64,000 nt of DNA from an uncultured delta proteobacterium (GCA_963782435.1 CAWAKF010000030.1:84573-148572), one strand, 5' to 3'. Positions 8,776-62,262 are shown, counted from the stretch's first letter. Notes: a model not told the origin generated them from the sequence alone. A program made the numbers and translations.

Positions 8776-8892
8776 GAGGTTCGAGGTATAAGGTATGAGG
8801 TTCAAGGGAAAACCTCAAATCCTAAACCTTATCTCCTAAACCTTATAAGTTGTAAATTAGACATATACCTTAAACCGTAGACCTTGGACCTT
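8776..8892. repeat. period-7 inverted-arm repeat (nAGGTnn / nnACCTn)
   Basis: gaggttc gaggtat aaggtat gaggttc aagg ... aaacctc aaatcct aaacctt atctcct aaacctt ... atacctt aaaccgt agacctt ggacctt. Confidence 0.85.
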
Positions 8893-8919
8893 AGGCAAGT
8901 AGTTTATGTGTCAAACTGC

Positions 8920-8948
8920 TTGACAGCCCTAAAATATTCATTTATATT
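8920..8948 (+). promoter_or_regulatory. sigma70-type promoter of tRNA-Leu
   Basis: TTGACA-17 nt-TATATT, 35 nt upstream of the tRNA. Confidence 0.7.
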
Positions 8949-8982
8949 TTTAAAAAATATAAAAATCAATTAAATAATGATT

Positions 8983-9070
8983 GCCGAAGTGGTGAAATTG
9001 GTAGACGCGCTAGGTTCAGGGCCTAGTAGGCAATAGCCTGTAGGGGTTCGAGTCCCCCTCTTCGGCACCA
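8983..9070 (+). tRNA. tRNA-Leu(CAG)
   Basis: GCCGAAG acceptor stem pairing with CTTCGGC-ACCA; anticodon arm ctagg-ttCAGgg-cctag; long variable arm; GGTTCGAGTCC T arm. Confidence 0.97.
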
Positions 9071-9078
9071 GGTAGTTA

Positions 9079-9118
9079 GAAGCGGGCAAGTTTTCAATAA
9101 CTTGCCCGCTTTTATTTT
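9079..9118 (+). terminator. intrinsic terminator after the tRNA
   Basis: aagcgggcaagtt-ttcaat-aacttgcccgctt followed by a T-rich tract. Confidence 0.75.
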
Positions 9119-9235
9119 AGGGTGGGTTCGGATAGGGTGCAGAAGGGTGCTGGGAATCCGATCGGTTAACAACATCCTGGTTACTGTTCAGGATCAGGCG
9201 GCCTTAAATATTATCCGTTTTTAGGAACAGGCAGT

Positions 9236-9406
9236 TCAAGTATGATCTTTGGTCAGCAGAATCCTTTTTTGTTTCGTCGCAAGTCTAATCACATCTGAAT
9301 CTGCTGCCCTGGGAGTAATTTCAGCAACAGCCAAAACCTCATGCTTAGCTTTCCTCAAAGCATAGACGACAGCAAAATCACAAGATTCATCGGCCAGAAA
9401 ACGCAT
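9236..9406 (-). pseudogene. truncated DUF5615/PIN-like toxin
   Basis: Manual translation MRFLADESCDFAVVYALRKAKHEV...DSDVIRLATKQKRILLTKDHT* (56 aa); stops where the TxDxDF motif should continue; lies directly after DUF433. Confidence 0.75.
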
Positions 9407-9410
9407 AGGC

Positions 9411-9662
9411 TTATTTTAAGGCCACGCGCCTGGGAGGATCTAAAAAAACCATTTCTTCATGGGCCAGGGTATCTGCCGCATAACGTATAGCGGCTTGGAT
9501 ATCTTTAACCCTAAGCTTTGGATAGGCCTTAAGGAGATCCGGTTCCTTGGCCCCTTCGCTGAGTTTCCTTAAAATAAGTTCCACCGTAATTCGCGTTCCA
9601 CGGATTATCGGTTTTCCCATCATAACCTTGGGATTGACTTCAATTCGTTCAATAAATGTCAT
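9411..9662 (-). CDS. DUF433 antitoxin
   Basis: RIEVNPKVMMGKPIIRGTRITVE...YPKL...DIQAAIRYA. Confidence 0.92.
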   Translation of the reverse strand: MTFIERIEVNPKVMMGKPIIRGTRITVELILRKLSEGAKEPDLLKAYPKLRVKDIQAAIRYAADTLAHEEMVFLDPPRRVALK

Positions 9663-10036
9663 ATGATTCCTCCTGCTTCTCTCATCGCGGCACCGCCAAG
9701 AGCATGGATCTAATAGTCTTTTTTCGTCACTACTCTTAAGATACAGGGCCGAAAGGGAGTTGGCAAGGCGTAAAAAATCTTGCCCCCGGTTCTGTTCAGT
9801 TTTCAGTCAGGCCCGCAGGGTATTGGTTTACCAAATCTCTTATCCCTTTGATCCATTTACACCCGCCGGCATCCCCGGTAACCTGACCGAATCCTTACAG
9901 ACCATAAAATCCCATCTACCCACCCGTCCCCACTCTAATTTTGAAATCTTCTGAGGGGTTAATGGATGTGGGTTGGTAAGGGCATAAATTTAAATCCATT
10001 CCAATTTGTCCCCAGTTTACCATTTTTTCTGCCTTT

Positions 10037-10600
10037 TCACTGGCCGCCGAAATCCTCCTTCAACTGATCGACGACATCTCCTACAAAATCGTGAAATCCC
10101 CAGCCGATACCATCGGTCATCTGCTCTACTCTCGCCAACCGGTCACGGAACTGTGGATACATCCCCCTCGCCTTGCCGCGCAACAGGGCGGCCATTTCTT
10201 CCAGCGCCGACTCTACGCTGCTGTAGAATCGCTCGTCAATGTCTCCAAACTTTTGGGTGAATTTTGCGCCGGTCTCCACATAGGTCATTAGTAATTCCAC
10301 CGTGCCAAGGAGGTCGCCCGTGGCCTTGCTGTAATTGCGGATAGCCTTGCGCGCTTCTCTCAGTTTCAACTTACCGAAGCCTCGTGCGGGAAAGAACTGC
10401 TCTACGATTTTGCCCCGATACTTTTCCAGGGCCTTGCCGCCGAACTCCCCGGCCTCAATGCGGGCATGGATAAAGTCGCGGTTATCAGGGGCAGATTCAT
10501 AAAGGTCTTTCACCAGGGCGAGCAGTGCGGGCTTGTCCCAGGAGGTGAGATGTTTGCGGACAGTGCTCCAACCACCCGGTTTTTTAGTTGAATTCTTCAT
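10037..10600 (-). CDS. conserved hypothetical helical protein (DUF6155-like)
   Basis: 187 aa, GGAG RBS; KLKLREARKAI...ELLMTYVETG...FGDIDERFY pattern; family assignment from memory only. Confidence 0.7.
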   Translation of the reverse strand: MKNSTKKPGGWSTVRKHLTSWDKPALLALVKDLYESAPDNRDFIHARIEAGEFGGKALEKYRGKIVEQFFPARGFGKLKLREARKAIRNYSKATGDLLGTVELLMTYVETGAKFTQKFGDIDERFYSSVESALEEMAALLRGKARGMYPQFRDRLARVEQMTDGIGWGFHDFVGDVVDQLKEDFGGQ

Positions 10601-10619
10601 GGATTATTTCTCCAGAGGG

Positions 10620-11035
10620 AAAGGATGAATGATGAAGGGTGAATTATGAAACATTAGCCTTCGTCTTCTTTGAGATGGTAGTGAGGATGGCCAAGAGTTG
10701 ATCGCATTCGTCCCGAAGGGCGGTAAGTTCCGCGTCAGGGACAATCGATGATTCCGCCAATAGCTCAAGCCAATAGGCAGTTTCGTCGAGTTCCTTAAGG
10801 CAGTCCCCGATCTTGGCGATGAACTCCGGCGTTGACCGAGCCCGATTTGCCTCTCGGTAATTGGCTCCAACGGATGTACCGGAGCGTAGGACCTGTTTGC
10901 CCAAAACCTGCGCTTCGGTTGACTTCGGTAATGCGGAATACATTCGAATCACCTGTAACGCAAACTCCTTCGTCCGAACCTGTAAATTTTTCAACTCTTT
11001 TTTTCCCTTCATCATTCACAATTCATCCTTCAACC
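10620..11035. repeat. period-7 inverted arms (TGAAnnn / nnnTTCA) bracketing the four-helix-bundle gene
   Basis: Minus strand 5' arm tgaagga tgaattg tgaatga tgaaggg (11005-11035); 3' arm ttcataa ttcaccc ttcatca ttcatcc (10620-10650). Confidence 0.85.
10644..11015 (-). CDS. four helix bundle protein (23S rRNA IVP / bAvd-like family)
   Basis: RTKEFAL...QVLRSGTSVGANYREA.RARS..EF..K....LKELDET.YWLELL. Confidence 0.92.
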   Translation of the reverse strand: MMKGKKELKNLQVRTKEFALQVIRMYSALPKSTEAQVLGKQVLRSGTSVGANYREANRARSTPEFIAKIGDCLKELDETAYWLELLAESSIVPDAELTALRDECDQLLAILTTISKKTKANVS

Positions 11036-11093
11036 TTCTTTTCCCACCAGACGCGGGCGAGGGATTGGATCTTCTTGTCGAATTCGATTTTTT

Positions 11094-11798
11094 TTAACCC
11101 AAAGTTTCTGAAAAATACGCCTTGTCCCAAATATTATCTCCCTTATCAAGATCCTTCTTGACCTCAGGAAAAGTAGCCAGAATTGCTTTTTTTAAGGAGA
11201 GCTTAAGTTTTCGGATGATGACTTCTATGGATTTTCCCCCATCGGATTCGACATAAATATGCAGGTGATCCGGAGCCAGCCAGAGCAGACGGGCAACTCC
11301 CCCAACGAGCCCCCCGCAACCAATAAGCGTATCAATAACTAAATTAAAATATTCTTTTTCAGGAGAAAAGACAGGTGTCCTTTGGCTGACATTCCAGGCC
11401 AAATGATACTTGAGTTCCATAAAAACCCCATCGGGATATTGTTTCAATTTCTGCAGAGCCAAGGCTTTCTGGTATTTGAACTTGTCGAAGCCCATTATTT
11501 CATGAATGGATTTATGCCTTGACTTTCGATCAACTGGAGCAGGGCGCGTTACCTCAGCCGAACCAATAAGGTTTAATCTCGGGCGAAAGGCGTGACAAGA
11601 AAAATTGTGATCATCTTGGACGGCTCGGTTCAGATGACAAAGAATCCCTTCCTTAAATTCCAAATCTCGGCAAACCAGGCAGCGGCTATCGGTCCGGACC
11701 CTATAAAACTTGTCACATTCCAGACATCTTTGAGGAGTATTTTTTTCAGGCATAGCTACTCGGTATCTTTTGAAGCGGCATGGCACGACCGGCAACAT
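11094..11798 (-). CDS. Cys-rich N-terminal domain fused to an IS200/IS605 (Y1 HUH) transposase-like domain lacking the catalytic Tyr helix
   Basis: CLEC..CLVC..C..C N-terminus; LKYHLAW, PDHLHIY (HUH), IWDKAYFSETLG*. Confidence 0.75.
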   Translation of the reverse strand: MLPVVPCRFKRYRVAMPEKNTPQRCLECDKFYRVRTDSRCLVCRDLEFKEGILCHLNRAVQDDHNFSCHAFRPRLNLIGSAEVTRPAPVDRKSRHKSIHEIMGFDKFKYQKALALQKLKQYPDGVFMELKYHLAWNVSQRTPVFSPEKEYFNLVIDTLIGCGGLVGGVARLLWLAPDHLHIYVESDGGKSIEVIIRKLKLSLKKAILATFPEVKKDLDKGDNIWDKAYFSETLG

Positions 11799-11815
11799 TT
11801 AGCCTTCGCATTGGG

Positions 11816-12040
11816 TCACGTTACCTCATAGGTTTTTTCCTCTTCACCCCAGACGCGGGCGAGAGTGGCCTGAATCTTCTTCTCGAAGCGGGCGATCAAT
11901 TCGCGGTTGGCGGCAACCAACGCCTGCTCGGCTTCGATCTCGGCTACGATGGCTTGCTGCGTGGCGAGGGGTGGAAGTGGTAGCTTGAACCTCAAAACGT
12001 CGCCCTTGGTGATGTTCGGATTTTTTCGAGTGCTGTGAGC
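11816..12040 (-). pseudogene. 3' remnant of a type I R-M specificity (HsdS or HsdM-S fusion) gene
   Basis: Manual translation ...NPNITKGDVLRFKLPLPPLATQQAIVAEIEAEQALVAANRELIARFEKKIQATLARVWGEEEKTYEVT*. Confidence 0.75.
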
Positions 12041-12294
12041 GGGTTTTTGTCCTCCGATTTGGCCTCAAGGACAATGAGCGGAAAGCCTTTGTTGTCTAAC
12101 AGCAGAAAATCGATGAAACCCTTGCTCGTCTTCTCGAAGTTCTCGCCAAGGGCTTCCAGATCGGTTTTCTTGATTGTGACACCGGGTTCGAGGCGAATGT
12201 TGGCTGGGGTGCTCCCTTCCGGAAAGAAACGCCAGCCTGCCGCTTCAAGCAGCTTGTTGATTTTGATACGGGCCGTGGCTTCCTTATCAGACAT
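12037..12294 (-). pseudogene. hsdR: 5' remnant of a type I restriction endonuclease subunit R
   Basis: MSDKEATARIKINKLLEAAGW...FIDFLLLD..GFPLIVLEAKSEDKNPL (PD-ExK start); homology ends after about 86 codons. Confidence 0.8.
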
Positions 12295-12400
12295 TCTGAT
12301 TCCTATTTTCCCCTCCTGTCCAAAATAAAACCCCCCATCTCTTTTTCAAGAATTAGGGTCTTGTCGGACTGTTTCATGGACCAGCCTTTCGGGTTTAAGA

Positions 12401-12470
12401 GCTATCAGCAATCAGCATTCAGTTTTCAGGAAAATATTTGGTAATAAAGACTTATGGTGGCGGCTGACTA
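12401..12470. repeat. period-7 repeat (GnnnTCA) with a degenerate inverted arm
   Basis: gctatca gcaatca gcattca gttttca g ... ggctgac. Confidence 0.6.
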
Positions 12471-12730
12471 TTAATGTCTATTTGCTCTATTTTAAACCAT
12501 AACAAACAGTTAAAGTCAACATTTATGGGAAAAATATCTTTAATCCTTGGGGAGGGAGTGCTCGAATCCCCAATTTAAAGTTGGGTCCCCACCTTTACGA
12601 GACGAAGAAAAACATTGCCTATAGGTTGCAAGTCGTGGTAAAATTATCACAATTTAAATAAAGTCCGTAATAGTAATAACAAGTGGTTACGATTTTTCGG
12701 CGTTTTCTCTATTCAGAAACAAAGACTGAA

Positions 12731-12768
12731 AAAGCGGGCAAGGTTTATAAAACTTCCCCGCTTTTTTT
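12731..12768 (+). repeat. terminator-like hairpin resembling the one after tRNA-Leu
   Basis: aaagcgggcaaggtttataaaacttccccgctttttt versus aagcgggcaagttttcaataacttgcccgctttt at 9080. Confidence 0.6.
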
Positions 12769-12806
12769 ATAAAGAATACGGCCGGAAGGAGGGGTCAGGA
12801 GATAAG

Positions 12807-14166: not shown

Positions 14167-14243
14167 CAGTCGGTACCGTTTTTATAATCGATTAACAAAA
14201 TTTTGTCGATGTATCGGCATTATACACCTAAAAGGGAGGATAA

Positions 14244-17265: not shown

Positions 17266-17287
17266 GTTGTATTAACGGCGGAAAACT

Positions 17288-19670: not shown

Positions 19671-19840
19671 AGGGTTTAAGGTATAGGTGGAGGTATCAGG
19701 TAAGAGGTTCAAGGTTTATGGTTTTAGGTGTTTGGTAGAGAGACTTTAACTGAAGATCGAAAAAAATGGTCCAGAACAAAGGTGTTTTTCATTGTTTAAA
19801 ACCAGGGACCTTACACCGTACACCTTAAACCTTATACCTC
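19671..19840. repeat. period-7 inverted-arm repeat between convergent genes
   Basis: aaggtat...gaggttc aaggttt atggttt taggtg / ggacctt acaccgt acacctt aaacctt atacctc. Confidence 0.8.
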
Positions 19841-25942: not shown

Positions 25943-26147
25943 TGCGTTGCGAGTTGCGGGTTCCGAGTTCCGGGTTTCCAAATCAAGACAAATCAAACAA
26001 GCAAATATCCTTCGTCGTAGCACATTCGACCTTCTTCAAAACCATATTACATATCTGGAAGCGGCTCCCTTTTTTCATCTTAGCGGTTTAATCTGATTAT
26101 GATTGCTTATTCTAACCCGCAACCCGCAACCCGCAACCCGCAACCGG
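25943..26147. repeat. period-7 inverted-arm repeat whose right arm lies inside the next CDS
   Basis: gcgttgc gagttgc gggttcc gagttcc gggtttc / (aacccgc)x4 at 26114-26141. Confidence 0.85.
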
Positions 26148-27394
26148 TTTTTGACGTTATCGTCATTGGCGCCGGGGCCGCGGGGATGATGGCTGCCGGC
26201 CGGGCTGCTGAAATGGGGGCCCGGGTTCTTCTATTGGAAAAGATGACAAGGGCCGGCTTAAAACTGGGTATTACCGGAAAAGGCCGCTGTAATCTGACCA
26301 ATCAGGGGGACATTCAGTCCTTCCTGGAAAGTTATTCTCCGGATGGTCGTTTTCTGCGCAACGGGTTCGCCCGTTTTTTTAATCAGGATTTAATAAAATT
26401 TTTTGAGCAGAGGGGAGTGCCTCTGGTTGTGGAAAGGGGAGGGCGGGTTTTTCCAAAATCCAACCGGGCCTTGGATGTGGTTTCCGCCCTGCTGGCCTAT
26501 TTGAAGGAACAAGAGGTCATCTTGAGGAAAGAACAAACCGTAAAAGAGATCCTGGTCCATGCCGGGCAAGTCCACGGGGTTTCAACCAACCGGGAAACTC
26601 TAAAGGCCTCAGCGGTAATCCTGGCCACAGGAGGGGCCTCTTATCCCGGGACCGGTTCAACCGGGGATGGGTATCGACTGGCGCAAAGGGTGGGACATAG
26701 GATTATACCTATCCGGCCCTATTTGATCCCTTTAGTCATTAAGGAGTCATGGGTTAAGGAGCTTCAGGGGTTGTCATTAAAAAATGTTGCTGCTTCGATT
26801 TATTCCAAGGGCCTGAGGGGGCCTTCGGAATTCGGAGAATTGCTCTTTACCCATTTCGGGATTTCCGGGCCGATAATTCTGACTCTTAGCGGCCGGGTAG
26901 TCGATATTCTAAAAGAGGGCCGGGTGGAAATTTCGATTAATCTCAAACCGGCTTTGACCCCGGAACAGTTGGATGAGAGATTGAAAAGGGAATTGAAGGC
27001 CCATCATCTCAAGGGATTGCAGGCTATTTTAAAATTATTGTTACCAAACAGGATGATTCCGGTCTTTTTGGCACTGGTCAAGATTCCAGGAGACAAAAAA
27101 GGGAATCAAATTTCCGCCGAAGAACGCTTGCGAATAAGAACCTTGCTGACTGATTGGCGAATGACGGTGACCGGCCACCGGCCTCTCGAAGAGGCAATCA
27201 TTACCGCCGGCGGTGTTCACCTTAAGGAAGTGGATCCCAAAACGATGGAATCGAGAATTGTTAAAGGGCTTTTCCCTTGCGGGGAAATCCTGGATATTCA
27301 GGGAAAAACCGGGGGCTATAATCTGCAAGCCGCCTTTTCCACCGGCTGGGTGGCCGGGGAGGTGGCGGCCGGAAAAGTTACGGGCGAAGAGTGA
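26099..27394 (+). CDS. HI0933/YhiN/BaiN family flavoprotein
   Basis: VIGAGAAG, GKGRCNLTN, ATGGASYPGTGSTGDG, FTHFGISGP, GGYNLQAAFSTG. Confidence 0.95.
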   Translation: MIAYSNPQPATRNPQPVFDVIVIGAGAAGMMAAGRAAEMGARVLLLEKMTRAGLKLGITGKGRCNLTNQGDIQSFLESYSPDGRFLRNGFARFFNQDLIKFFEQRGVPLVVERGGRVFPKSNRALDVVSALLAYLKEQEVILRKEQTVKEILVHAGQVHGVSTNRETLKASAVILATGGASYPGTGSTGDGYRLAQRVGHRIIPIRPYLIPLVIKESWVKELQGLSLKNVAASIYSKGLRGPSEFGELLFTHFGISGPIILTLSGRVVDILKEGRVEISINLKPALTPEQLDERLKRELKAHHLKGLQAILKLLLPNRMIPVFLALVKIPGDKKGNQISAEERLRIRTLLTDWRMTVTGHRPLEEAIITAGGVHLKEVDPKTMESRIVKGLFPCGEILDIQGKTGGYNLQAAFSTGWVAGEVAAGKVTGEE

Positions 27395-27409: not shown

Positions 27410-27527
27410 TGGATTCAAATGTCGGATTTCGGAACCTGTGATCGGCAGGGGATTGCGGAATTAAAAACCTGTTTTCAAGCTTTAACCAGTAACCCGCAAC
27501 TCGTAACCCGTAACCGCTACCCGCAAC
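27410..27527. repeat. period-7 repeat tracts upstream of rlmN
   Basis: ggatttc...ggattgc ggaatt and aacccgc aactcgt aacccgt aaccgct acccgc aac. Confidence 0.7.
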
Positions 27528-27539: not shown

Positions 27540-28583
27540 ATGAACAACAAAGTTGACCTTCGAAATTTGACTTTTGAAGAACTGCAGGCCTGGATTACAA
27601 ACCTTGGTTTGGAATCCTACCGGGCCGAGCAGATCTCTCGTTGGTTATTCCTGCCGCATATTAAAACCTTTGATCAAATGACTAATTTATCCAAAAAATG
27701 GCGGGGTCTTTTCCGGGAGAAGGCCTACTTGAGTCATTTAATTATCTTAAAGGTTGAAAGATCTTCCGATAAAACCCAAAAATTTCTTTTTGAACTGGAA
27801 GATGGAGAGCGGATTGAAAGCGTCCTGATCCCGGAACGGGGGCACTACACCTTATGTATTTCTTCGCAGGTTGGTTGTGCCCAAAAGTGCCGGTTTTGTT
27901 ATACCGGGAAAATGGGGTTGAAAAGAAACCTCAAAGCCTCGGAGATCCTGAATCAGATCTTGACTGTTCAGGAGACTTTGACTGAAAAAGACCTTCTTCT
28001 GACCAATATTGTTTTGATGGGTATGGGAGAACCCTTGGACAACTTAGAAAACACAATCCGAGCCTTGAAAATCCTGCTTTCTCCCTTTGGAATGCAATTT
28101 TCCCACCGCCATGTGACCCTGTCTACGGCCGGTCTGATTCCGCAAATGAAGATCCTGGGGGACCTCCTTCCGGTTAATTTGGCCCTTTCCTTGAATGCGG
28201 CCGATGACGCCACCAGAAACCGGCTGATGCCCATCAATCGAAAGTTTCCTCTGGCCTCCTTGATTCAAGCGTGTAAGGCCTTTCCCTTGCCGCACAAGAA
28301 AATGATTACGATTGAATACATTTTGATAAAAGGGGTTAATGATTCTCCCCAGGCCGCCAGATCCCTGGCTAAATTACTGAAAGGAGTAAAGGCCAAGATT
28401 AACCTGATCCCATTCAATGCCCATCCCGGTTCCGGGTTTAAACCCCCGGATGAAGAGGGCCTCTTAAAGTTTCAAGATATCCTGATCGATTCTCAATACA
28501 CAGTAATGATTCGCAGAAGCAAGGGGGCGGATATCTCAGCCGCCTGCGGCCAGCTTCATGCCGATTGGAGTCAGGAGTTTTGA
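27540..28583 (+). CDS. rlmN: 23S rRNA m2A2503/tRNA methyltransferase RlmN
   Basis: CISSQVGCAQKCRFC, MGMGEP, INLIPFN, ISAACGQL. Confidence 0.97.
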   Translation: MNNKVDLRNLTFEELQAWITNLGLESYRAEQISRWLFLPHIKTFDQMTNLSKKWRGLFREKAYLSHLIILKVERSSDKTQKFLFELEDGERIESVLIPERGHYTLCISSQVGCAQKCRFCYTGKMGLKRNLKASEILNQILTVQETLTEKDLLLTNIVLMGMGEPLDNLENTIRALKILLSPFGMQFSHRHVTLSTAGLIPQMKILGDLLPVNLALSLNAADDATRNRLMPINRKFPLASLIQACKAFPLPHKKMITIEYILIKGVNDSPQAARSLAKLLKGVKAKINLIPFNAHPGSGFKPPDEEGLLKFQDILIDSQYTVMIRRSKGADISAACGQLHADWSQEF

Positions 28584-28600
28584 GTTCGGAGTTTGGAGTA
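28568..28600 (+). repeat. period-7 tract overlapping the rlmN stop
   Basis: ggagtca ggagttt tgagttc ggagttt ggagt. Confidence 0.75.
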
Positions 28601-33622: not shown

Positions 33623-33812
33623 GACTGAAGGCCGAAGGCTGAAGGGAACAGACGGCAATAGATTGTTGTTATATTTTTATTTTCCGGCTTGTTTCAACTG
33701 TTAACTTTCTTTTGAAACTAACCGAAAGTTATGATCACCCGATGAATAAAAACGGTTCATCAGGCTGGTTTGCTTTTCCTTCAGTCTTCAGCCTTTCCAC
33801 CTGAGTTGTTAC
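33623..33812. repeat. period-7 inverted-arm repeat
   Basis: gactgaa ggccgaa ggctgaa ggg / cct tcagtct tcagcct; ends cacctgagttgttac. Confidence 0.75.
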
Positions 33813-39019: not shown

Positions 39020-39101
39020 TTTGCCCCCAATTCGTCTTTCAAAAAAATGAATCTGCTGGTATATCTTCTGAAAATTGGTTTCTGATAAATGAAGGGAACC
39101 A

Positions 39102-39221
39102 GAGGTCTAAGGTGCAAGGTTAAAGGTGCAAGATTGAAGAAGAACCCTTTCCATGGATCGTGGACTGGGAACCTTACACCGGCAGATACAAATCCTTGAA
39201 CCCTTGAATCTTCGAACCCTT
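39102..39221. repeat. period-7 plus period-8 repeat tracts
   Basis: gaggtct aaggtgc aaggtta aaggtgc aagattg ... atccttga acccttga atcttcga accctt. Confidence 0.75.
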
Positions 39222-39234
39222 TTATTCATTTTTA

Positions 39235-40218
39235 TTACGAAGCCCCTTTAAAGGAGAAATGACAGGCGACCAGATGATCGGGAGAAATTTCCTGCAAGGC
39301 CGGGACCTCCTTCGAACAGCCCGGTTGCGCCTCGGGACATCGGGTGTGAAATCGACATCCCGAAGGAATATGAAGCGGGCTGGGCACCTCTCCGGTCAGA
39401 ATGATTTCATTCTTTTGCTCATCCGGATGGGAGGGGAGGGCCGCCGAGAGGAGGGCCCTGGTATAAGGATGTAAGGGGTTTTGATATAACTCGGAGCTTT
39501 CTCCTGTTTCCACCAGTTTCCCCAGATACATCACTCCTATGCGGTTGCTCATATGCTTGACTACGGCCAGATCATGGGCGATGAGCAGGTAGGTCAACCC
39601 GAATTGGTCCTGAATTTCTTTCAGGAGATTCATAATCTGGGCCCGGATGGATACATCCAGAGCCGATACCGGTTCATCCAAGAGGATCAGTTTCGGATTC
39701 AGAGCTAGTGCTCTGGCCACGGCGATTCTTTGCCGTTGACCACCGCTGAATTCATGGGGATAGCGGTCGGCATGATCGGCCTGAAGCCCCACCACCTCCA
39801 GGACCTCGACAACCTTATCCCGGATCTGTTTTCGGCTGAATTGTTTATGAACAATCACCGGCTCGGCGATGATCGATCCCACCCGCATCCTCGGGCTTAG
39901 TGAGCTATAGGGATCCTGAAATACCGCCTGGACCTCGCTACGATAATTTTTGTGTTCCAGGTCCGACATCTTCCCGATGTCGTGACCTTCAAAAAATATA
40001 TGGCCCGAGGTGATGGATTCGAGCAGCAGGATCAGTTTGGCCGTGGTGGTTTTGCCACATCCGGATTCCCCCACCAACCCGAAGGTCTCCCCTTTGGCGA
40101 TATTAAAACTCACCCCGTCCACGGCCTTGATGGCTCCGATCTGCTTCATGAGGATGAGCCCTTTGGAAATCGGAAAATGCTTAATCAGATTTGTAACCTG
40201 AAGGACTTTTGGTTCCAT
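39235..40218 (-). CDS. oligopeptide/dipeptide ABC ATPase (OppF/DppF)
   Basis: GESGCGKTT, FSGGQRQR, DEPVSALD, GCRFHTRC. Confidence 0.93.
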   Translation of the reverse strand: MEPKVLQVTNLIKHFPISKGLILMKQIGAIKAVDGVSFNIAKGETFGLVGESGCGKTTTAKLILLLESITSGHIFFEGHDIGKMSDLEHKNYRSEVQAVFQDPYSSLSPRMRVGSIIAEPVIVHKQFSRKQIRDKVVEVLEVVGLQADHADRYPHEFSGGQRQRIAVARALALNPKLILLDEPVSALDVSIRAQIMNLLKEIQDQFGLTYLLIAHDLAVVKHMSNRIGVMYLGKLVETGESSELYQNPLHPYTRALLSAALPSHPDEQKNEIILTGEVPSPLHIPSGCRFHTRCPEAQPGCSKEVPALQEISPDHLVACHFSFKGAS

Positions 40219-41218: not shown

Positions 41219-41409
41219 TCACCACAGAGCCAAAGAGAACACAGAGAAATTTTCCTTTTCTTTGGCGGGGAAACCGCCAAAGAAAAACCAACTTGTCGCT
41301 TCGCAAACGGGCACATTATCAGGTGCCGCAAGCAGACTGGATTTTAAAAATCGGCATCTCCCGATTTTTTAAAAAAAAAGTCTCTGTGCTCTCTGTGACT
41401 CTGTGGTGA
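41219..41409. repeat. period ~9 inverted-arm element with nested hairpins inside the opp operon
   Basis: tcaccacagag ccaaagag aacacagag ... ctctgtgct ctctgtga ctctgtggtga; internal ctttggcgg-ggaaa-ccgccaaag. Confidence 0.85.
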
Positions 41410-44071: not shown

Positions 44072-45635
44072 ATGAAAGGATTTGGATTTAAAAAGATGTT
44101 TTGGTGTTGTTCGTTGGCACTTATTGTATCCTTTTTTCTCACCCCATCTTTAGGGCTGGCTGTACCGCCGAAAGGGGAAGTGGTATATGCCGTCCCGGCC
44201 AGTAATTTTTATCAGATCGGCGGTGACCCTGCCACCCAAGCCGCCGGGCTGCCGTTGTTGGCCAGGACGATTTTCGATTCTCTGGTTTATGTAAATAAGG
44301 ACGATAAGCTATTACCCAGTTTAGCCAAATCGTGGAAAATCGATCCCAACTGGAAATATATTGATTTTTTCCTTAGAGATGATGTGACCTTCCATAACGG
44401 CGATAAATTTACAGCGGAAGATGTAAAATTCAGCTTTGAAACCTATCTGCGCAAAGAACTTAGATATCTCTTTACTCCCATGTGGTCACGGAACATCGCC
44501 AAACTTGAAATCGTTGGCCCCTATCATTTTCGAATCTATTTAAACAGGCCGGACCCGGGTTTTCTGGGCCGCCTGTGGTGGTCAACCGGCATGATGCCTA
44601 AGAAATATCGGGAGAAGGTGGGCGATAAAGGGTTTGCCGACAAACCGGTCGGCACCGGACCTTTCAAATGGGTAGATTACAAACAGGATTCCTACTGGAA
44701 AGTGGAGGCCGTTAAAAAACATTTCCGTCACACCCCGGCCATAAAAACTTTTAAAGTGGTCTATGTACCCGGATCACGCCACACGGCTGGCCATGCTCAA
44801 AGCCGGGGAGGCGGACATGACCACGCTTATCGGACCTCATACAGTAGAAGTAAAAGCCGACCCAAACTTGCGATTAGTGGAGGGTAAATACACCAGCCTG
44901 ACCTGTATCACCTTTGCCGATTTGACTTTTCCCAAGGAACCCAGCCCTTTTCATGACATCCGGGTTCGTGAGGCGGCCAGCTTGGCCGTTGACCGGGAAG
45001 GGATTACCAAAAAAGTCCTCTTCAGTATGTCCGAACCTTACGGAGACTTCTGCTCTCCTATCACCCTAGGGCATGATCCCTCCATCAAACCTGATCCTTA
45101 TAACCCTGAGAGGGCCAAAAAGCTACTGGCGGAAGCGGGTTACCCCAAGGGTTTTGAAACCGTGATTACCACCACCCCTGAAAGCCGTTACTGGGTTGAA
45201 GCCATCGCCTATAACCTGGGGGAGGTGGGGATAAAAACGAAGGTCGATATTGTGGAAGGCGGGACCTATGTTAAGAACTTTATAACTAAAAAGTTTAAGG
45301 GGCTTTTGACCCAGGGGCTTTGGTGGCATGCGGAAATATCCGCTGCCGCCGATGCCGGCGATCACTTTTTAAGTTATATGCCCTATTGTTACAATACCAC
45401 CCCGGAGATTCAAAAAGCGATTATAGACGGAGCCTCTGCCATAACAGACGAGGAGATGAAAGTGGCCGGTGTCAAAATTTCCAAAGCAATTCGCGAAAGC
45501 CGGAATAAAGCCCTCCTCTGGGCTAACAGTATTCCCTATGGCCTGGGGCCGAGAATCGAGTATTGGGAACCGGAGGTCGGGGCCTTACCGGCCAGTGGTT
45601 TTGAAATGATTCGTTTAAAGAAGCAATATCAATAA
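44072..45635 (+). CDS. family-5 ABC substrate-binding protein (frameshift near 44770)
   Basis: Signal peptide, FHNGDKFTAEDVKFS, PVGTGPF, DIRVREA, YNPERAKKLLAEAGY. Confidence 0.9.
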
Positions 45636-45649: not shown

Positions 45650-45764
45650 GTTCGGAGTTAAGTGTTCGGGGTTCGGAGAAAATCTATTCCGAGGATTCAA
45701 GGGGTTAAGGGGCCGAGGGTTCAAGTGAAAGATTCATAGTTAAAACACTTGATCCCTCGACCCC
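45650..45764. repeat. period-7 and period-8 tracts with an inverted arm
   Basis: gttcgga gttaagt gttcggg gttcgga; ggattcaa ggggttaa ggggccga gggttcaa gtg / cacttgat ccctcgac ccc. Confidence 0.75.
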
Positions 45765-45773
45765 TTTTTTTTA

Positions 45774-46380
45774 TCAATCCTTGATTTTCATATATTCAAA
45801 TCTTGTTCCCGGATAGGAACCCAAATGCTGTTCCCATTTCACGATTTTTTTACTTGTTCCGAAATTGCCATGTTGAGACCATAAGGGGGGTCTAAAGTAT
45901 TTTTCACGAATCATTTTGGATAATTTCCTTCCCCATTTGGCCATATCCTCTTCGGTATAAGCGCTCATGGAATCATCGATGGCCTTTTCCACTTCGGCGT
46001 CAGTCGAATAAACAAAGACAGCGTCTTTATTAAAAGCGTTCTGGATGTATGCTCCCGGATGGCGCTCGGCGTCGTACCACAATCCGCCCAATTTCAAACC
46101 GGTCATTTTCTTTCTTCGGTGGGCATCATACCAGGCTCCTCCTTCAAAAACGTTAATCTTGGCTGAGATCCCTGCCTCCGCCAAATTAGCCTGAAGGGCC
46201 TCCATCATCTCTTTATCCCTGGTCATACAGTTCAAGGCGGTTTCAAATCCTTTGGGATACCCGGCCTCTGTCAGGAGCTTTTTTGCTCTTTCAGTGTCAT
46301 AGGGGTCGGGTTGGACAGTGGGGTCATAACCAAGGTTGTAGGGGCAGAGGACTTCACCCCAGGCACTGGCAGAACTAAAA
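45774..46380 (-). pseudogene. 5'-truncated family-5 substrate-binding protein
   Basis: Frame extends upstream as ...WGEVLCPYNLGYDPTVQPDPYDTERAKKLLTEAGYPKGF; no signal peptide or N-terminal half. Confidence 0.8.
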
Positions 46381-50670: not shown

Positions 50671-50700
50671 TCTCGGATTTTGGATTTCGGATTGCGGAAT
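50671..50700 (+). repeat. period-7 tract (TTnnGGA)
   Basis: tctcgga ttttgga tttcgga ttgcgga at. Confidence 0.7.
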
Positions 50701-57833: not shown

Positions 57834-57835
57834 CC

Positions 57836-58573
57836 GTGCTTGAAATCAACCAGGTGACGAAAACTTTCGGTGGTCTTTCTGCCGTCGATGAGGTCAGCTT
57901 TCAGGTCAATGAAGGAGAGGTGGTCGGCCTTATCGGACCGAACGGAGCCGGGAAAACCACTCTGTTAAATCTGATCTGCGGCCTGTATAAACCGAATTCC
58001 GGGTCGATCCGTTTTGACGGGACTGATATTACCGGGCAATCTTCCAACCGCGTATGCAGACTGGGTATATCCCGTACCTACCAGATTCCTAAGCCTTTTG
58101 AGGCCATGACCGCCCTGAGCGGCGTTTTGGTGAGTGTCTTGAACGGAAAAAGGCGCCAGAATATGAGCCTTTCCGATGCGGTTATGGAAGCCTCTTATTA
58201 TCTGGAGTTCGTGGGGTTGTTTGCTAAAAGGGATACCTTGGCCCGTCATCTAACCCTTTATGAGTTGCGGATGCTCGAATTGGCCAGGGCGCTGGCCACC
58301 ACCCCGAAACTTTTATTATTAGATGAAGCTATGGCCGGGTTGAACCCGACCGAAGCCTCACGTGCGCTGGAGATGATCTGGAATGCTCAGGATCAGTTTG
58401 CCATTACCATCCTCTGGATCGAGCATGTCATGAAAATCATCATGAGTGCCGCCCAACGGATTGTGGTTCTCCAATACGGAAAGAAGATCGCCGAAGGCTC
58501 GCCTCAGGAAATCACCAACGATCCGAAGACCATTGAGGCTTATCTGGGAGTACAGTATGCTCAACATCAGTAA
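57836..58573 (+). CDS. HAAT ABC ATPase (LivG-like)
   Basis: GPNGAGKTT, LDEAMAG, IEH, AYLG. Confidence 0.92.
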   Translation: MLEINQVTKTFGGLSAVDEVSFQVNEGEVVGLIGPNGAGKTTLLNLICGLYKPNSGSIRFDGTDITGQSSNRVCRLGISRTYQIPKPFEAMTALSGVLVSVLNGKRRQNMSLSDAVMEASYYLEFVGLFAKRDTLARHLTLYELRMLELARALATTPKLLLLDEAMAGLNPTEASRALEMIWNAQDQFAITILWIEHVMKIIMSAAQRIVVLQYGKKIAEGSPQEITNDPKTIEAYLGVQYAQHQ

Positions 58574-59261
58574 TCTGAATGCCTCATACGGGGTGATACC
58601 CATCCTTCATGATGTGAGTCTGGAGATAGGGGAAGGGGAAATCGTTGCCCTTCTGGGGGGAAATGGTGCCGGAAAAACGACCTTACTGAACGCCATTTCC
58701 GGTGTGTTAAAAACTCAATCGGGAAAAATTGTTTTTCTGGGTAATGAAATCCAAAACCGTCCTGCGGAAAAAATAGTCCAATGGGGGATAGCTCAGATAC
58801 CGGAAGGCCGAAAAATTTTCCCCTATCTGTCGGTCAAGGAAAACCTGCTGATGGGGGCTTGTACATCCAGGGCCTGGCGAAAGCGGCGTGAGATGTTGGA
58901 AAAAGTCTGTACTATTTTTCCCATTCTCAAAGAAAGGGCTGGACAACGGGCCAGTCTTATGAGCGGAGGGGAACAGCAGATGCTGGTTATTGCCCGGGGA
59001 TTGATGGCCCGTCCCAAACTGTTGATTATTGATGAACCCTCTTTGGGGCTCAGCCCTTTGATCATGAATCAGATTTATGAGGTCATTAAGACTTTTCCGG
59101 CTGAAGGCATCACCGTTTTGTTGTCGGAACAAAATGCCCTCTATGCATTGGAAGTTTCCTCCAGAGGATATGTGCTGCAGGACGGTCATGTGGTGTTGGA
59201 AGGAAAGAGTGATTTTCTTTTGAATAGTGAACTGGTGAAGAAGGCCTATATCGGCATGTAG
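58557..59261 (+). CDS. HAAT ABC ATPase (LivF-like)
   Basis: GGNGAGKTT, PEGR, MSGGEQQM, DEPSLGL. Confidence 0.92.
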   Translation: MLNISNLNASYGVIPILHDVSLEIGEGEIVALLGGNGAGKTTLLNAISGVLKTQSGKIVFLGNEIQNRPAEKIVQWGIAQIPEGRKIFPYLSVKENLLMGACTSRAWRKRREMLEKVCTIFPILKERAGQRASLMSGGEQQMLVIARGLMARPKLLIIDEPSLGLSPLIMNQIYEVIKTFPAEGITVLLSEQNALYALEVSSRGYVLQDGHVVLEGKSDFLLNSELVKKAYIGM

Positions 59262-59385
59262 CCGGTTGATGAAAAAAGCCCATCTGCGGTGTTGTCCTCA
59301 TCCCTCGTCGGTTCAACGTACATTAGTACGCCTCCCTCCACGGGATTTCGGACGCCTTGCATCTGGGCCTTTTTGATCAACCGGC
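59261..59385. mobile_element. 125-bp MITE-like element with terminal inverted repeats
   Basis: gccggttgatgaaaaaagccc ... gggcctttttgatcaaccggc; starts within the livF stop codon. Confidence 0.65.
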
Positions 59386-59450
59386 AACCGTAGTCCTTTT
59401 CGGAATTTGAGATTGAAGACTAAAAAATTTCTAACCGGTAGGAGATAAGG

Positions 59451-60809
59451 ATGGCCGAAGATTATTTTACGTATACCGAAAAAATATTCGATCCTAATGA
59501 GATTCCCGGAAAACCTGAAGCCTTGAAAGGGATCCGGGTCCTCGATCTGTCCCACATGATCTTCGGCCCCACCGCCGCCAAGTTTCTGGGACAATTCGGG
59601 GCGGAAGTGATCAAAGTGGAAGTCCCCTACCAGGGCGACTACTGGCGGGGAGGAACCTACTGGGGAAAATTTTGGAAACATTCTAACCCTCTTTGGCATT
59701 TTATCAACCAGAATAAATATTTCGTTGCCATCGATGTTAAGAAACCCAAAGGAAAAGATCTGATTTTAAGGTTGGCCGAGAAATCCGACGTGGTCATAGA
59801 AAACTTTACCTCCGGAACAGTGGAGGCCTGGGGGATCGGTTATACCCAGGTGAGCAAGATCAACCCCAAAGTTATCTACGCCTCGTTAAGTACCTACGGC
59901 CAATATGGTCCTTTCCGCTATTTTCCGGGTTGGGATTTACTGGCCCAGGGGGCCAGTGGAGTCCTTTCCATTACCGGCCATCCGGAAACAGAAAAATATT
60001 TCAAGATTCCCGATTTTTTCGGTGATTTTTTCCCGGGTCATTATGCCGCCATGCAAATTCTGATGGCCCTTAACTATCGGGAAAGGACTGGAGAAGGCCA
60101 GTATCTCGATTGTTGTCAGGCTGAAATTCTGATGAGGTCCCTCTTTCATTTCACCCTTCACGAAGCCACCGGGGATGATCTGGGGCGTACCGGAAACATG
60201 GACCCCACCATGGCCCCTTCAGGGATTTTTAAAACCCGGGACGAAAAATTCATCGCCCTGGCCATTGGGACGGATAAACAATTTCAGGCCCTCTGCCGGG
60301 TCCTTGGTCGGGAAGATCTGGCGCAAGACAAAAAATTTAAAAAGGCCTTTGACCGGCTTAAGCTGGAAAATGCCTCCGAATTAGATCGGATCGTTGAAGA
60401 ATGGGTTTCCTCCCAGGAGGCTTCTGTGATCATTGACCTGGGCAGAAAACATCATTTCGCCGTGGCCGAAGTCATGGATGATGTGCAAATCGGTCAGGAT
60501 CCCTGGCGGCAGGAGCGGGGAAGCGTCATCCGTTTCCATGATGACATGTATAAAGAACTGGAATTGGAAGGCCCGATTGCCATGCTCAGTAAAACTCCGG
60601 GGAGGACCAAGTGGCTTACCCGGCCTCTGGGGTATCATAACCGGTATATCTTTAAAAAAATTTTGGGTCTTACCGAAAAACAGATTAAGACCTTGGAAAA
60701 AGAAAGGGCTGTGGGCTACTGGGATTTCCGGGTCGGCCAGCGCCCGCCTATTTATTACAATTTGGAAAAGGATCCTATTTTTAATTATCAAGGGGGTGAG
60801 GACCATTAA
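59451..60809 (+). CDS. family III (CaiB/BaiF) CoA-transferase, subunit 1
   Basis: LKGIRVLDLS, GAEVIKVE, DVVIENF, YGQYGP, GWDLLAQ. Confidence 0.92.
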   Translation: MAEDYFTYTEKIFDPNEIPGKPEALKGIRVLDLSHMIFGPTAAKFLGQFGAEVIKVEVPYQGDYWRGGTYWGKFWKHSNPLWHFINQNKYFVAIDVKKPKGKDLILRLAEKSDVVIENFTSGTVEAWGIGYTQVSKINPKVIYASLSTYGQYGPFRYFPGWDLLAQGASGVLSITGHPETEKYFKIPDFFGDFFPGHYAAMQILMALNYRERTGEGQYLDCCQAEILMRSLFHFTLHEATGDDLGRTGNMDPTMAPSGIFKTRDEKFIALAIGTDKQFQALCRVLGREDLAQDKKFKKAFDRLKLENASELDRIVEEWVSSQEASVIIDLGRKHHFAVAEVMDDVQIGQDPWRQERGSVIRFHDDMYKELELEGPIAMLSKTPGRTKWLTRPLGYHNRYIFKKILGLTEKQIKTLEKERAVGYWDFRVGQRPPIYYNLEKDPIFNYQGGEDH

Positions 60810-62157
60810 AGAGCAGGTCTTTTCAAGATATTTACAAAAAAAAGGCTCCTCCCATCGACTTTCCGCCTGGAGTGAGTTTTTATCGAAAATGATGGTTGCC
60901 GAGGGAAAGGCGGAAGCCTTGGATGATATGGTGGTCCTGGACCTGAGTTATGCCAATTTTTCAGGGAATATTACTGCCAGCTTTTTTGCCGAAGCCGGAG
61001 CCGAGGTGATCAAGATAGAACCTCCTGATGGAGATCCGGCCAGAGTGATGAGTCCCTATGGGACCCAGGTCAAGGGAGTTGGGATCCCTTTTCTGATGGA
61101 AAGCCGGAATAAACGGAACATCACCTTAGATGTCGCTGATCCTGAGGATCGGGAAAACTTTAAGCGCCTGGCCTCCCGGGCCGATGTGGTCATCGAAACC
61201 TTCGCACCCGGTGAAATGGATGCCTGGGGGATCGGCTATCGCCAGTTAAAGGAGCTGAACCCCGGACTGGTCTATATTGCCATAACACCTTATGGGCATT
61301 ATACGGCCAAAGCCAAAGAAATGGCCGGAATGCCCTGGACCGATTTGACCAGTCAGGCCGAATCAGGACTGACCGCATTGATTGGAGATCTCCCGGATAC
61401 GCCGGATCCTTTTAACTGGCCCACCCGGGCCGGGTTTTATGCCGCTGGGTATACCACGGCCGTGGGTGCGGCCTGTGGAGGGCTGACGGCTTCTTTTTTC
61501 AAGCGCCGGACCGGAGAAGGTCAGATGATTGATATTGCCTCCGCCGATGCCTATACCTCCTGCGTCGGTTTTCCGCCTACCATCGGCTATGTCTGGAAAA
61601 AACCCCGGTTGCGCTATGGAACTCTGGACTACGGCCTATGTCCTTATGGATTTTTCAAGGCTAAAGACGGCTATGTGGCTATCGCCTGTTTTCGAGACCA
61701 GGACTTCCGGGCGGCCATGAAGATTCTGGGTACCTGGAAATTGGAGGAAGACTGGAAATCTCTCTTAGACCGAATCACCGATGATATCGATAAGGTAAAA
61801 GAATTGAACGAAGCGGTGGAAAAGGCGGTTGGTCGGTATACCTATAAGGAAATCTCCGATAAATTTTCCAGATACAGCGTCAAGTCGGCCCGGTCCAAAT
61901 GGCGGGGCGGGGGGTTGCCGGTAACGACCAAGATGTTGACTCCCAAAGAGGTGTTAGACCAAGAGCACTGGAAGGTTCGCGGCTCATTTGCCAAAGTGGA
62001 CCATCCAGCCTTCGGGATCGTTACCTTGCCGGTTACCGGCAAAATGTCCAAAACACCGTTGCGCGTGAAATGGATCTCGGCCAATATCGGGGAGGATAAT
62101 GACTATATTTTCAAAAAATATGGATTGGAACCCAAAAAAGAAGGAAAGGATATATAA
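60796..62157 (+). CDS. family III CoA-transferase, subunit 2 (start uncertain)
   Basis: VLDLS, GAEVIKIEPP, ADVVIE, LNPGLVY, TDLTSQA, TGEGQ. Confidence 0.9.
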   Translation: MRTIKEQVFSRYLQKKGSSHRLSAWSEFLSKMMVAEGKAEALDDMVVLDLSYANFSGNITASFFAEAGAEVIKIEPPDGDPARVMSPYGTQVKGVGIPFLMESRNKRNITLDVADPEDRENFKRLASRADVVIETFAPGEMDAWGIGYRQLKELNPGLVYIAITPYGHYTAKAKEMAGMPWTDLTSQAESGLTALIGDLPDTPDPFNWPTRAGFYAAGYTTAVGAACGGLTASFFKRRTGEGQMIDIASADAYTSCVGFPPTIGYVWKKPRLRYGTLDYGLCPYGFFKAKDGYVAIACFRDQDFRAAMKILGTWKLEEDWKSLLDRITDDIDKVKELNEAVEKAVGRYTYKEISDKFSRYSVKSARSKWRGGGLPVTTKMLTPKEVLDQEHWKVRGSFAKVDHPAFGIVTLPVTGKMSKTPLRVKWISANIGEDNDYIFKKYGLEPKKEGKDI

Positions 62158-62179
62158 AAAAATTTCAATTCCCATGAGA

Positions 62180-62262
62180 GCTTTCAGCGATTAGCGGGCA
62201 GCTCTTAGAAAACCATTTTAATAGCGTTTTTACTGACTGCTTAAGGCTAAAAGCTGTCCGCT
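62180..62262. repeat. period-7 inverted-arm repeat between convergent genes
   Basis: gctttca gcgatta gcgggca gctctta g / ctgactg cttaagg ctaaaag ctgtccg ct. Confidence 0.75.

Follow-up and report, generated by a model that had tools for sequence, protein, structure and literature searches.

Why do some dozen intergenic places within one stretch of bacterial DNA share a geometry in which tandem units of 7 to 9 nucleotides (nt) are followed by their own reverse complement, and what connects these places with a small gene that is bracketed in the same way? The stretch, hereafter the window, is the whole of 64,000 nt from an uncultured delta proteobacterium (GCA_963782435.1, CAWAKF010000030.1:84573-148572; positions are counted from its first letter), and the gene encodes a four-helix-bundle protein of the family known from intervening sequences of 23S rRNA, here called the intervening-sequence protein (IVP). 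A first-pass annotation of the window had proposed that the hairpins are the arms of cassettes carrying a four-helix-bundle gene or a GxxExxY gene and that the other copies lack the gene, and this core idea is supported by the analysis described below. We regard it as probable that small stem-loop gene cassettes belonging to a widespread family are present in the window together with gene-less derivatives, RNA processing being included in the statement. The architecture, the gene linkage, the turnover and the miniature derivatives, as read from sequence, are very likely correct when taken by themselves, and a processing step by RNase III, argued from analogy, may apply, with the balance standing about even.

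The full cassette spans about 430-600 nt and consists of a 5′ array of about four to five units of 7 nt (less often 8 or 9 nt), one small gene and a reverse-complement array, with the G-rich strand of the 5′ array lying in the gene sense. The cargo assigned to class I is an IVP gene (PF05635/TIGR02436), of the family encoded in 23S rRNA intervening sequences, and that assigned to class II is a GxxExxY PD-(D/E)XK_3 gene, the cassettes of which have units of about 9 nt and the termini TCACC...GGTGA. The cassettes sit in the sense orientation directly past the stop codon of the upstream gene, and at the same site in close relatives they appear as present, absent, exchanged or nested. By the same kind of comparison, they decay or shrink to cargo-less hairpins, which make up a large share of the heptamer hairpins of the genome.

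Tandem tracts were called with Tandem Repeats Finder (TRF), and those in the window were also read directly. An inverted partner was defined as a reverse complement with at least 75% identity within 600 nt, the controls being the reversed, the complemented and the direct tract, and the partner scores in the window were ranked against 200 flank shuffles per tract. The class-I cassette of the window and its parts are as follows.

10601-11050, minus strand: class-I cassette, arms and IVP gene, which differs as a block from the closest relative.
11006-11040, minus strand: 5′ arm in gene sense, GGTTGAA GGATGAA TTGTGAA TGATGAA GGG, which holds the start codon (TRF period 7, 4.7 copies).
10644-11015, minus strand: IVP (four-helix-bundle) gene of 123 aa (PF05635, TIGR02436, PDB 2rld).
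10621-10650, minus strand: 3′ arm in gene sense, which holds the stop codon (TRF period 7, 3.9 copies).

The encoded protein belongs to the family by both profiles (PF05635, 75.2 bits with a cut-off of 33.8; TIGR02436, 95.5 bits with a cut-off of 24) and matches 2rld, its closest relative with a solved structure, with an E value of 1.2e-21; this entry holds five chains. The bracketing described in the first-pass annotation was confirmed, with TGAAnnn four times on one side of the gene and nnnTTCA five times on the other, and with both the start and the stop codons inside the arms. The partner score of these arms was 35, compared with 12 and 14 in the controls, and was reached by none of the 200 shuffles. 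Folding of the sense-strand RNA of the cassette gave a minimum free energy (MFE) of -148 kcal/mol (z -2.82), and none of 100 shuffled sequences was as stable; in both the MFE and the centroid structures, a terminal stem of the two arms is predicted to close the cassette.

The same arrangement was found at the other IVP genes of the genome. The assembly (5.40 Mb, 51 contigs, 47.5% G+C; labelled G000, with C-numbers for its contigs) holds 11 places matching PF05635, which represent nine distinct paralogues with 13-28% identity to the window copy, and all nine have arms by eye, with a different unit at each. When flank complementarity was scored for 5139 proxy genes, defined as open reading frames (ORFs), the IVP genes ranked 1, 8, 13, 21, 26, 51, 160 and 211, with three at 469; two of the latter three copies, on C48 and C35, had over-long ORF calls that displaced the flank windows. 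The 99th percentile of the ORF proxies, for which the flank windows were slightly different, was 28 and served as the cut-off, and each locus set was given its own controls with identical windows. In 26 genomes of relatives from the same genus, family and phylum, 21 of 28 IVP loci reached the cut-off, with 0 and 1 in the two controls (28 of 30 loci were scored; L031, from the genome itself, and L045, a weak match, were dropped). Among public loci from many phyla, 61 of 78 reached it, compared with 0 of 73 in windows displaced by 1 kb, 5 in the reversed control and 9 in the complemented one (78 of 80 were scored; L066 and L124 had too short flanks). Seventeen of 23 GxxExxY loci from relatives also had inverted arms scoring at least 28, and both controls gave 0 (23 of 30 loci; L180-L184, L192 and L193 were dropped as truncated or stop-containing matches). 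The enrichment of such arms beside four-helix-bundle or GxxExxY genes, which had been put forward as a check, was thus borne out.

The 78 public IVP loci span more than 15 phylum-level labels, including Desulfobacterota-type lineages, Planctomycetota, Verrucomicrobiota, Nitrospirota, Acidobacteriota, Chloroflexota, Chlorobi, Proteobacteria, Armatimonadota and others. The nearest relatives of the IVP are labelled Syntrophorhabdus and Desulfatiglans, and carriers available in culture include Desulfacinum hydrothermale DSM 13146 (L118) and Thiohalocapsa marina DSM 19078 (L062). With all sets combined, arms were present at 87 of 114 IVP loci, the best period being 7 in 58, 8 in 18 and 9 in 11 of them, and repeat tracts were about 12 times denser beside IVP genes (3.6 per kb) than elsewhere in the same loci (0.31 per kb). 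The arm-to-arm distance had a median of 445 nt (87 loci). The arms had a median length of 4.4 units, and 115 of 215 were between 3.5 and 5.5 units, a mode of 4-5 units that is partly technical owing to the TRF score threshold, which truncates low copy numbers. For the statistics on polarity, mismatches and arm-to-arm distance at these loci, L056 was dropped as well, its arm being identical to that of L055. IVP and GxxExxY cassettes also cluster in islands (L011, which is G000:C18:177500-186500; G013:C165; G010:C31; G018:C343); in the C18 island, a span of 9 kb crowded with octamer arrays contains three IVP genes, and one contig of G013 has at least two IVP and at least four GxxExxY matches.

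The arm unit follows the IVP protein subfamily across phyla. Among 37 homologues of one paralogue with GATTCAA arms, drawn from many phyla, 19 had units with at most two mismatches from GTTCAAG, compared with 1 of 16 mixed paralogues of the relatives and 76 of 496 tracts in the whole genome. The placement relative to the host genes is likewise regular. The upstream neighbour was co-oriented in 107 of 109 IVP loci (genome baseline 73%) and both neighbours in 93 of 103 (baseline 56%), and the 5′ arm started at a median of 5 nt past the upstream stop codon, within 20 nt in 73% of the 85 loci having an upstream frame of at least 100 codons. No Rfam match to rRNA was found in the window or in 20 relatives' IVP loci, and four IVP proteins gave no match to the PADLOC defence models.

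The tracts themselves are far more numerous than chance would produce. With two order-3 Markov simulations of the whole genome as the chance baseline, period-7 tracts of at least three copies numbered 479 in the genome versus 13 and 8 in the simulations, those of period 8 numbered 65 versus 4 and 7, and those of period 9 numbered 58 versus 5 and 2. The simulation rate (8 and 13 per 5.4 Mb) predicts about 0.1-0.15 period-7 tracts per 64 kb, and TRF reported 10 in the window, together with two tracts of period 8 and two of period 9 (39498-39525 included), all with at least three copies. After merging, the 496 period-7 tracts of the genome comprised 125 distinct units, in line with the earlier claim that what is conserved is the geometry and not the sequence. 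An inverted partner within 600 nt was present for 155 of these 496 tracts (31%), compared with 1 in the reversed, 5 in the complemented and 10 in the direct control (0.2-2%), so that both the enrichment of tracts with periods 7, 8 and 9 and their pairing held against the controls. The loops of paired tracts were mostly 20-120 nt.

Short-loop pairs (n = 80) lay outside ORF proxies in 97% of the cases; 61 of them were between co-directional, 14 between convergent and 5 between divergent genes, the corresponding intergenic baseline being 2141, 470 and 551. The left arm was G-rich in 67 of 78 empty hairpins, and the opposite polarity, with the C-rich arm first, was almost absent (7 of 78). Because such a hairpin is a palindrome with a G-rich left arm, both strands read the G-rich arm first. 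The 5′ arms of IVP cassettes, in gene sense, have the same polarity, with 31% G and 13% C. Heptamer arms that bracket housekeeping genes, among them those for a phosphoenolpyruvate-utilising enzyme, an electron-transferring flavoprotein-ferredoxin protein, a RuBisCO-like protein, FolE2 and HpcH, were considered as further cassettes and rejected; in the one such case checked, C19 130021-132579, the right side is a separate ACTGGAT hairpin, and all such genes were therefore treated as flanked by separate hairpins.

Comparison of orthologous sites supplied the presence or absence of elements, cargo swaps, a deletion derivative that keeps the 3′ end of the gene, and empty hairpins; presence or absence and gene cargo in relatives were what the first-pass annotation had suggested comparing. 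At the site of the window cassette, the flanking genes of the closest relative, G008, are 81-95% identical, the boundaries are clean, and a 96-aa LexA-N-like ORF without arms lies between them. This ORF (L139 2068-2358, minus strand) has a LexA N-terminal-like winged-helix region, with a TIGR00498 score of 37.5 bits that is below the cut-off. At a site in front of a tsaD-like gene, G000 carries a TTCGGCG-armed cassette and G005 a CGGATTG-armed cassette with another IVP type; in G009 the CGGATTG arms are kept and only a 3′ gene remnant, about 60 nt by reading, is left, and the site is occupied by an empty AAGGTnn hairpin of 100-160 nt in each of G008, G013 and G003. At a site in front of a guaA-like gene, an IVP is found in five relatives, the AGTTCGG-armed cassette of G005 being nested inside CGTTCGn arms and G003 having a different IVP type with AAGGTnn arms.

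Gene-less hairpins also turn over. At the ribF site, a hairpin of the same unit type as in the window is present in G009, G003, G013 and G005, with the variable positions changed, and G008 has another unit; a T run follows the hairpins of G009 and G013. An AGTTCGG hairpin stands in G008 at the site of the window hairpin at 19671, and at the 33623 site G008 has a single unit and no paired arms within the flanking homology read. Separately, a dispersed palindromic repeat, CTGGATTCCnGCTTTCGCnGGAATGACG, was noted in G000 in the flanks of C19:71912 and C41:31074, and a similar element lies inside the loop of the ribF-site hairpin of G005 (C162, L158 about 400-590), so that hairpin loops also take up other small elements.

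The second class of cargo was recognised through a small gene with 9-nt arms, identified as PDDEXK_3/GxxExxY (PF13366/TIGR04256), a family of unknown function. These cassettes have units of about 9 nt and the conserved termini TCACC...GGTGA, and full copies are present in the genome at C37 and C47. The window contains a derivative of this class.

41219-41409, unstranded: gene-less class-II miniature, TCACC(ACAGAGnn)x3 ... (nnCTCTGT)x3GGTGA, with two small inner hairpins.

The terminal pattern TCACC + (RCARAGnn)n gave two inverted matches there, with 0 expected, and the termini and the module order are the same as those of full GxxExxY cassettes; the loop of 132 nt has no ORF and hence no PF13366/TIGR04256 gene, for which reason the element is taken as a miniature form. 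The genome contains four gene-less class-II miniatures of 188-270 nt, of which three show 75-82% mutual identity. Each of the four is built up as arm, small hairpin, spacer, small hairpin and arm, and this order likewise frames the full cassettes that were read. A comparable relation exists in class I, where the IVP cassette with ACTGGAT arms has a subterminal stretch that is matched by 18 of 23 ACTGGAT-family hairpins at 83-92.5% over 34-59 nt; the remaining five match repeat arrays only, over at most 25 nt. The earlier view that the other copies are empty four-helix-bundle cassettes thus holds in so far as gene-less copies share subterminal modules with full cassettes, and it fails at 41219, which is of the GxxExxY type, at 45690, which is terminator-like, and for about five solo tracts.

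All tracts that the first-pass annotation had listed were found in place by TRF and direct reading. Its further statement that most have a downstream inverted arm is correct in part only: seven cases are convincing, two or three others are weak, and about five lack a partner. The remaining tracts of the window are given below, unstranded except where a strand is named.

8776-8891: empty AAGGTnn hairpin, with a G-rich arm at 8776-8805, a C-rich arm at 8812-8846 and a second C-rich array at 8867-8891.
12400-12428: solo AGCAATC array (TRF), without partner.
19671-19839: empty AAGGTnn hairpin between convergent genes, with arms at 19671-19735 and 19808-19839 and a loop of 72 nt.
25946-26145: GTTGCGG / AACCCGC hairpin, with arms at 25946-25976 and 26114-26145 and a loop of 137 nt.
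27410-27440: weak CGGATTT array, score reached by 1 of 200 shuffles, with an apparent partner inside the rlmN coding sequence; probably not an element.
27483-27527: solo AACCCGY array, score reached by 39 of 200 shuffles, with its complement 1.5 kb upstream at 25946.
28565-28599: solo GGAGTnn array of 5 copies (TRF), without partner.
33623-33795: CTGAAGG hairpin, with arms at 33623-33648 and 33775-33795 and a loop of 126 nt; score 27, reached by 0 of 200 shuffles.
39102-39221: AAGGTnn array (period 7) facing a CCTTGAAC array (period 8), weakly paired (TRF).
45650-45680: solo GTTCGGn array, without partner.
45690-45775, plus strand: AAGGGGn hairpin followed by a T run.
50671-50698: solo CGGATTn array (TRF), without partner; in relative G005, an IVP cassette has arms of this unit type.
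62180-62262: short AGCnnnC array, weakly paired with an inverted partner at 62248-62262; 4 of 200 shuffles reach its score of 20.

The partner exceeded all 200 flank shuffles at 10621/11008, 19671/19808, 25946/26114, 33623/33775, 41219/41381 and 45690/45748. The hairpin at 8776, located between the start of ribF and the tRNA-Leu promoter, pairs with 8812-8846 and has fold z values of -3.4 (plus strand) and -4.1 (minus strand). It adjoins, as a variable element, a promoter-like region CTTGACAG ... TTCATTTATATTTTTAAAA (window 8940-9070) that is conserved in five relatives, the tRNA-Leu(CAG) gene itself being at 8983-9070. The partner score was 29 for the hairpin at 19671 (0 of 200 shuffles) and 42 for that at 25946 (0 of 200), which has 4.6 perfect copies by TRF and the unit of which also makes the arms of the IVP copy C18:184898. 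The AACCCGC x4.6 array overlaps, at 26099-26145, the annotated start of the ORF at 26099-27394, an aminoacetone-oxidase-family flavoprotein, and would encode 'NPQPATRNPQP' there; the family profile begins at residue 20, and the true start is therefore probably downstream of the array. The arms at 39102 pair in the MFE fold, with z values of only -0.6 and -0.9, and the partner score is marginal, being reached by 20 of 200 shuffles. The hairpin at 45690-45775 (fold z -3.1 and -4.8; partner score 28, 0 of 200 shuffles) looks like the intrinsic terminator of the gene at 44763-45635, a G+C-rich hairpin with a U run behind a gene; the hairpins at 8776, 19671, 33623 and 39102 have no T run.

The cassette architecture suggests how such an element could persist. 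The cassette would be co-transcribed with the upstream host gene, and its two arms would pair in the RNA as a duplex that extends over about 30-40 bp and is mismatched periodically, an architecture like that of the rRNA intervening sequences excised by RNase III. Cutting by RNase III could then free the cassette RNA and separate the flanking cistrons, with the result that the insertion would be tolerated, and a start codon in or beside the stem may provide structural control. At the DNA level, spread might favour hairpin sites or sites past stop codons; a preference for hairpin sites is drawn from the nested arms and the placement past stop codons. The encoded protein would probably recognise its own repeat unit, since the link between unit and subfamily, the four to five units per arm and the pentameric ring described in the family together suggest that the protein reads its own arrays.

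Several observations weigh against this account. In the window, no convincing partner was found within 600 nt for the tracts at 12401, 27483, 28568, 45650 and 50671, the stretch 39100-39225 folds no better than shuffles, and the position of the ribF/tRNA-Leu hairpin is a divergent promoter region instead of the space behind a gene. The paralogues on C36 and C29 have weak or interrupted arms, as do, in the sense of weak arms, 11 of the 78 loci from other phyla. The mismatches between arms show no excess of G.U-compatible changes on the sense strand (112 versus 124 of 428), and this lack of wobble asymmetry means that nothing favours pairing of RNA over pairing of DNA. A look for RNA sequencing runs covering window 8700-12400 listed none. 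Full-length cassettes contained no transposase of a known family and no mark of a known transposition chemistry, target-site duplications not having been looked for. The gene calls, moreover, are ORF proxies, and the relatives' loci are non-independent.

Other origins of the arms come into question. The hairpins could be ordinary host elements, such as terminators, mRNA-stabilising elements or elements like the repetitive extragenic palindromic (REP) sequences, formed from slippage-prone repeats; the IVP and GxxExxY genes alone would then be mobile and home into the loops, and the arms would belong to the target and not to the cassette. The U run behind the 45690-45775 hairpin agrees with this, as do the depletion of hairpins between divergent genes (5 of 80 versus about 17% expected), the nested arms in G005, understood as an insertion into an existing hairpin, and the empty hairpins found at cassette sites in relatives, with the ribF-site hairpin kept in five species. 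However, with an arm unit that follows the protein subfamily from phylum to phylum, homing would have to be unit-specific, the window site in G008 lacks the arms as well as the gene, the miniatures share inner non-repeat modules with full cassettes, and most hairpins have no U run; we consider such an origin unlikely. Neutral replication slippage with pairing by chance deserves practically no credence: simple tandem units are indeed prone to slippage and some tracts are solo, but the controls refute it through the approximately 45-fold excess at period 7 specifically, pairing in 31% versus at most 2%, intergenic placement in 97%, a polarity of 67 to 7 and the link to two gene families. It is also very improbable, and largely refuted, that the hairpins are elements of the kind of the REP doublets known as REPINs, moved by the Y1 transposases of the genome (of the type of IS200 and of REP-associated tyrosine transposases, RAYTs). 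A Y1_Tnp gene (11094-11798, minus strand) does adjoin the window cassette, the genome has 18 Y1_Tnp places, and long imperfect hairpins resemble REP doublets; yet a Y1-like match was near only 2 of 114 IVP loci, by which the neighbouring transposase gene is incidental, at least five Y1 genes have different inverted repeats of their own on either side, which contain GGGGACA..ATACTTA, and the uniformity of REP families contrasts with the 125 unit types of the genome. As separate observations, the GGGGACA..ATACTTA repeats look like REP/RAYT units and have no relation to the heptamer arms, and the Y1_Tnp places listed, besides that in the window, are C39:32564-33226, C10:81314-81976, C51:13209-13775, C44:10655-11323 and C49:126750-127409.

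Two bolder proposals concern what the arrays do. The arrays could be binding sites of an IVP pentamer, each arm of about 4-5 units wrapping one ring as GAG repeats wrap the ring of the trp RNA-binding attenuation protein (TRAP), and each paralogue reading its own unit, both at its own gene and at gene-less hairpins that would form its regulon. This proposal, which is compatible with the cassette reading, we hold as tentative and somewhat unlikely. It would fit the units, which consist of a fixed 3-4-nt core and a variable remainder, the number of units per arm, the link of unit to subfamily and the fixed polarity of the arms, and the five chains of the 2rld entry; in the available portions of two papers, one family member is described as a homopentameric toroid (PMC4990558), and the genome paper on Geobacter metallireducens files palindromic arrays of five heptanucleotides as sites of a global regulator (PMC2700814). 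On the other side, 125 unit types are to be set against only nine IVP paralogues in the genome, and the mode of 4-5 units is in part technical, as noted. Avd relatives, in addition, are reported to bind nucleic acid without sequence specificity, which counts against it. Still more doubtful, as one joint claim, is that the tandem heptamer arrays and the intervening-sequence four-helix-bundle proteins are the halves of one system, in which a pentameric IVP ring would read about five 7-nt units, a particular unit for each paralogue, the gene would be carried along within a hairpin composed of the sites that its product binds, the copying and decay of cassettes would seed many phyla with unit-specific hairpins serving as RNA-processing or regulatory sites, and the GxxExxY nucleases would be a parallel class with 9-nt units.

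Taken together, the reading of the window as stem-loop gene cassettes and their gene-less derivatives is the one that we prefer, and it can be set beside several known systems. Short tandemly repeated repetitive (STRR) sequences, tandem heptamer repeats of cyanobacteria, were reportedly described by Mazel et al. in 1990; to our knowledge, they have been a puzzle since 1990, and the intervening-sequence four-helix-bundle proteins have been unexplained since 1993. Tandem heptamer arrays are also represented, in the available parts of the respective texts, by the TAACTGA repeats of Beggiatoaceae (PMC4679880), by the heptanucleotide arrays of Geobacter metallireducens, the 'class 3' sites of which are palindromic (PMC2700814), and by arrays in Nostoc; one preprint calls the protein that interacts with such tandem heptamer hairpins unidentified. 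The likeness to the arrays of cyanobacteria, Beggiatoaceae and Geobacter, to the extent that these sources describe them, lies in intergenic runs of 3-6 heptamers, many unit families, some of them palindromic, and a suspected regulatory role, and the genome studied here has tandem intergenic heptamers of many families as well. The differences are that its genes are those of a non-phototrophic bacterium of the anaerobe type and not those of a cyanobacterium, that the arrays here are as a rule inverted, with a fixed G-first polarity and a gene as cargo, and that in the available texts on Beggiatoaceae, Geobacter and Nostoc no IVP or GxxExxY genes are brought together with the arrays.

With miniature inverted-repeat transposable elements (MITEs) and REPINs, the hairpins have in common that the ends and subterminal modules of short, non-coding, dispersed, hairpin-forming elements recur in a longer relative that carries a gene, and the class-II miniatures and the ACTGGAT hairpins do occur as dispersed similar copies with inverted ends that derive from a longer element; they differ in that linkage to RAYTs was looked for and not found and in that the arms are tandem arrays, the unit of which varies by family. 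The IVP family is homologous to the four-helix-bundle fold of the Avd protein of diversity-generating retroelements, according to the available part of the source (PMC10053308). The context differs, being a stem-loop cassette here, and no reverse transcriptase or pair of template and variable repeats turned up among the annotated IVP neighbours, no search having been aimed at them. Within the papers that could be consulted as readable text, few of which are in subscription journals and which were taken without supplements such as the figures of PMC2700814, none was found that connects tandem-repeat arms in the flanks with IVP or GxxExxY genes.

The closest known system is the 23S rRNA intervening sequence with an IVP or 'S23p' ORF, as in Leptospira, Coxiella, Xanthomonas and Brucella. 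The available text of one study gives for its rRNA element a length of 428-444 nt, a near-perfect terminal stem of 28 bp, an ORF in the loop and cutting by RNase III midway within the stem, and such sequences are regarded there as selfish and horizontally spread (PMC4990558). Within what the accessible sources state, the two kinds of element share a length of about 430-450 nt, inverted repeats at the termini from which a long stem forms, a loop holding a PF05635 ORF, the start codon of which is close to the 5′ side of that stem, and the sense orientation in the host transcript; in the cassettes described here, the predicted fold closes a long stem round the ORF and the median arm-to-arm distance is 445 nt. 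The cassettes differ in lying outside rRNA, past the stop codons of protein genes and not in a helix of the 23S molecule, in having stems built of arrays of 7-9-nt units with periodic mismatches where that text describes a near-perfect 28-bp duplex (PMC4990558), and in occurring as multi-copy, divergent paralogues (13-28% identity) with gene-less derivatives and a second cargo family. The cassettes are thus a new, general form of a known element type. If this is true, the IVP and GxxExxY genes, which are among the commonest unexplained small multi-copy genes of bacteria, gain a context and a testable function from their shared cassette architecture, the tandem heptamer hairpins reported in several phyla gain an origin and a candidate binding partner, and the rRNA intervening sequences become a special case of a wider element that is normally located behind protein genes.

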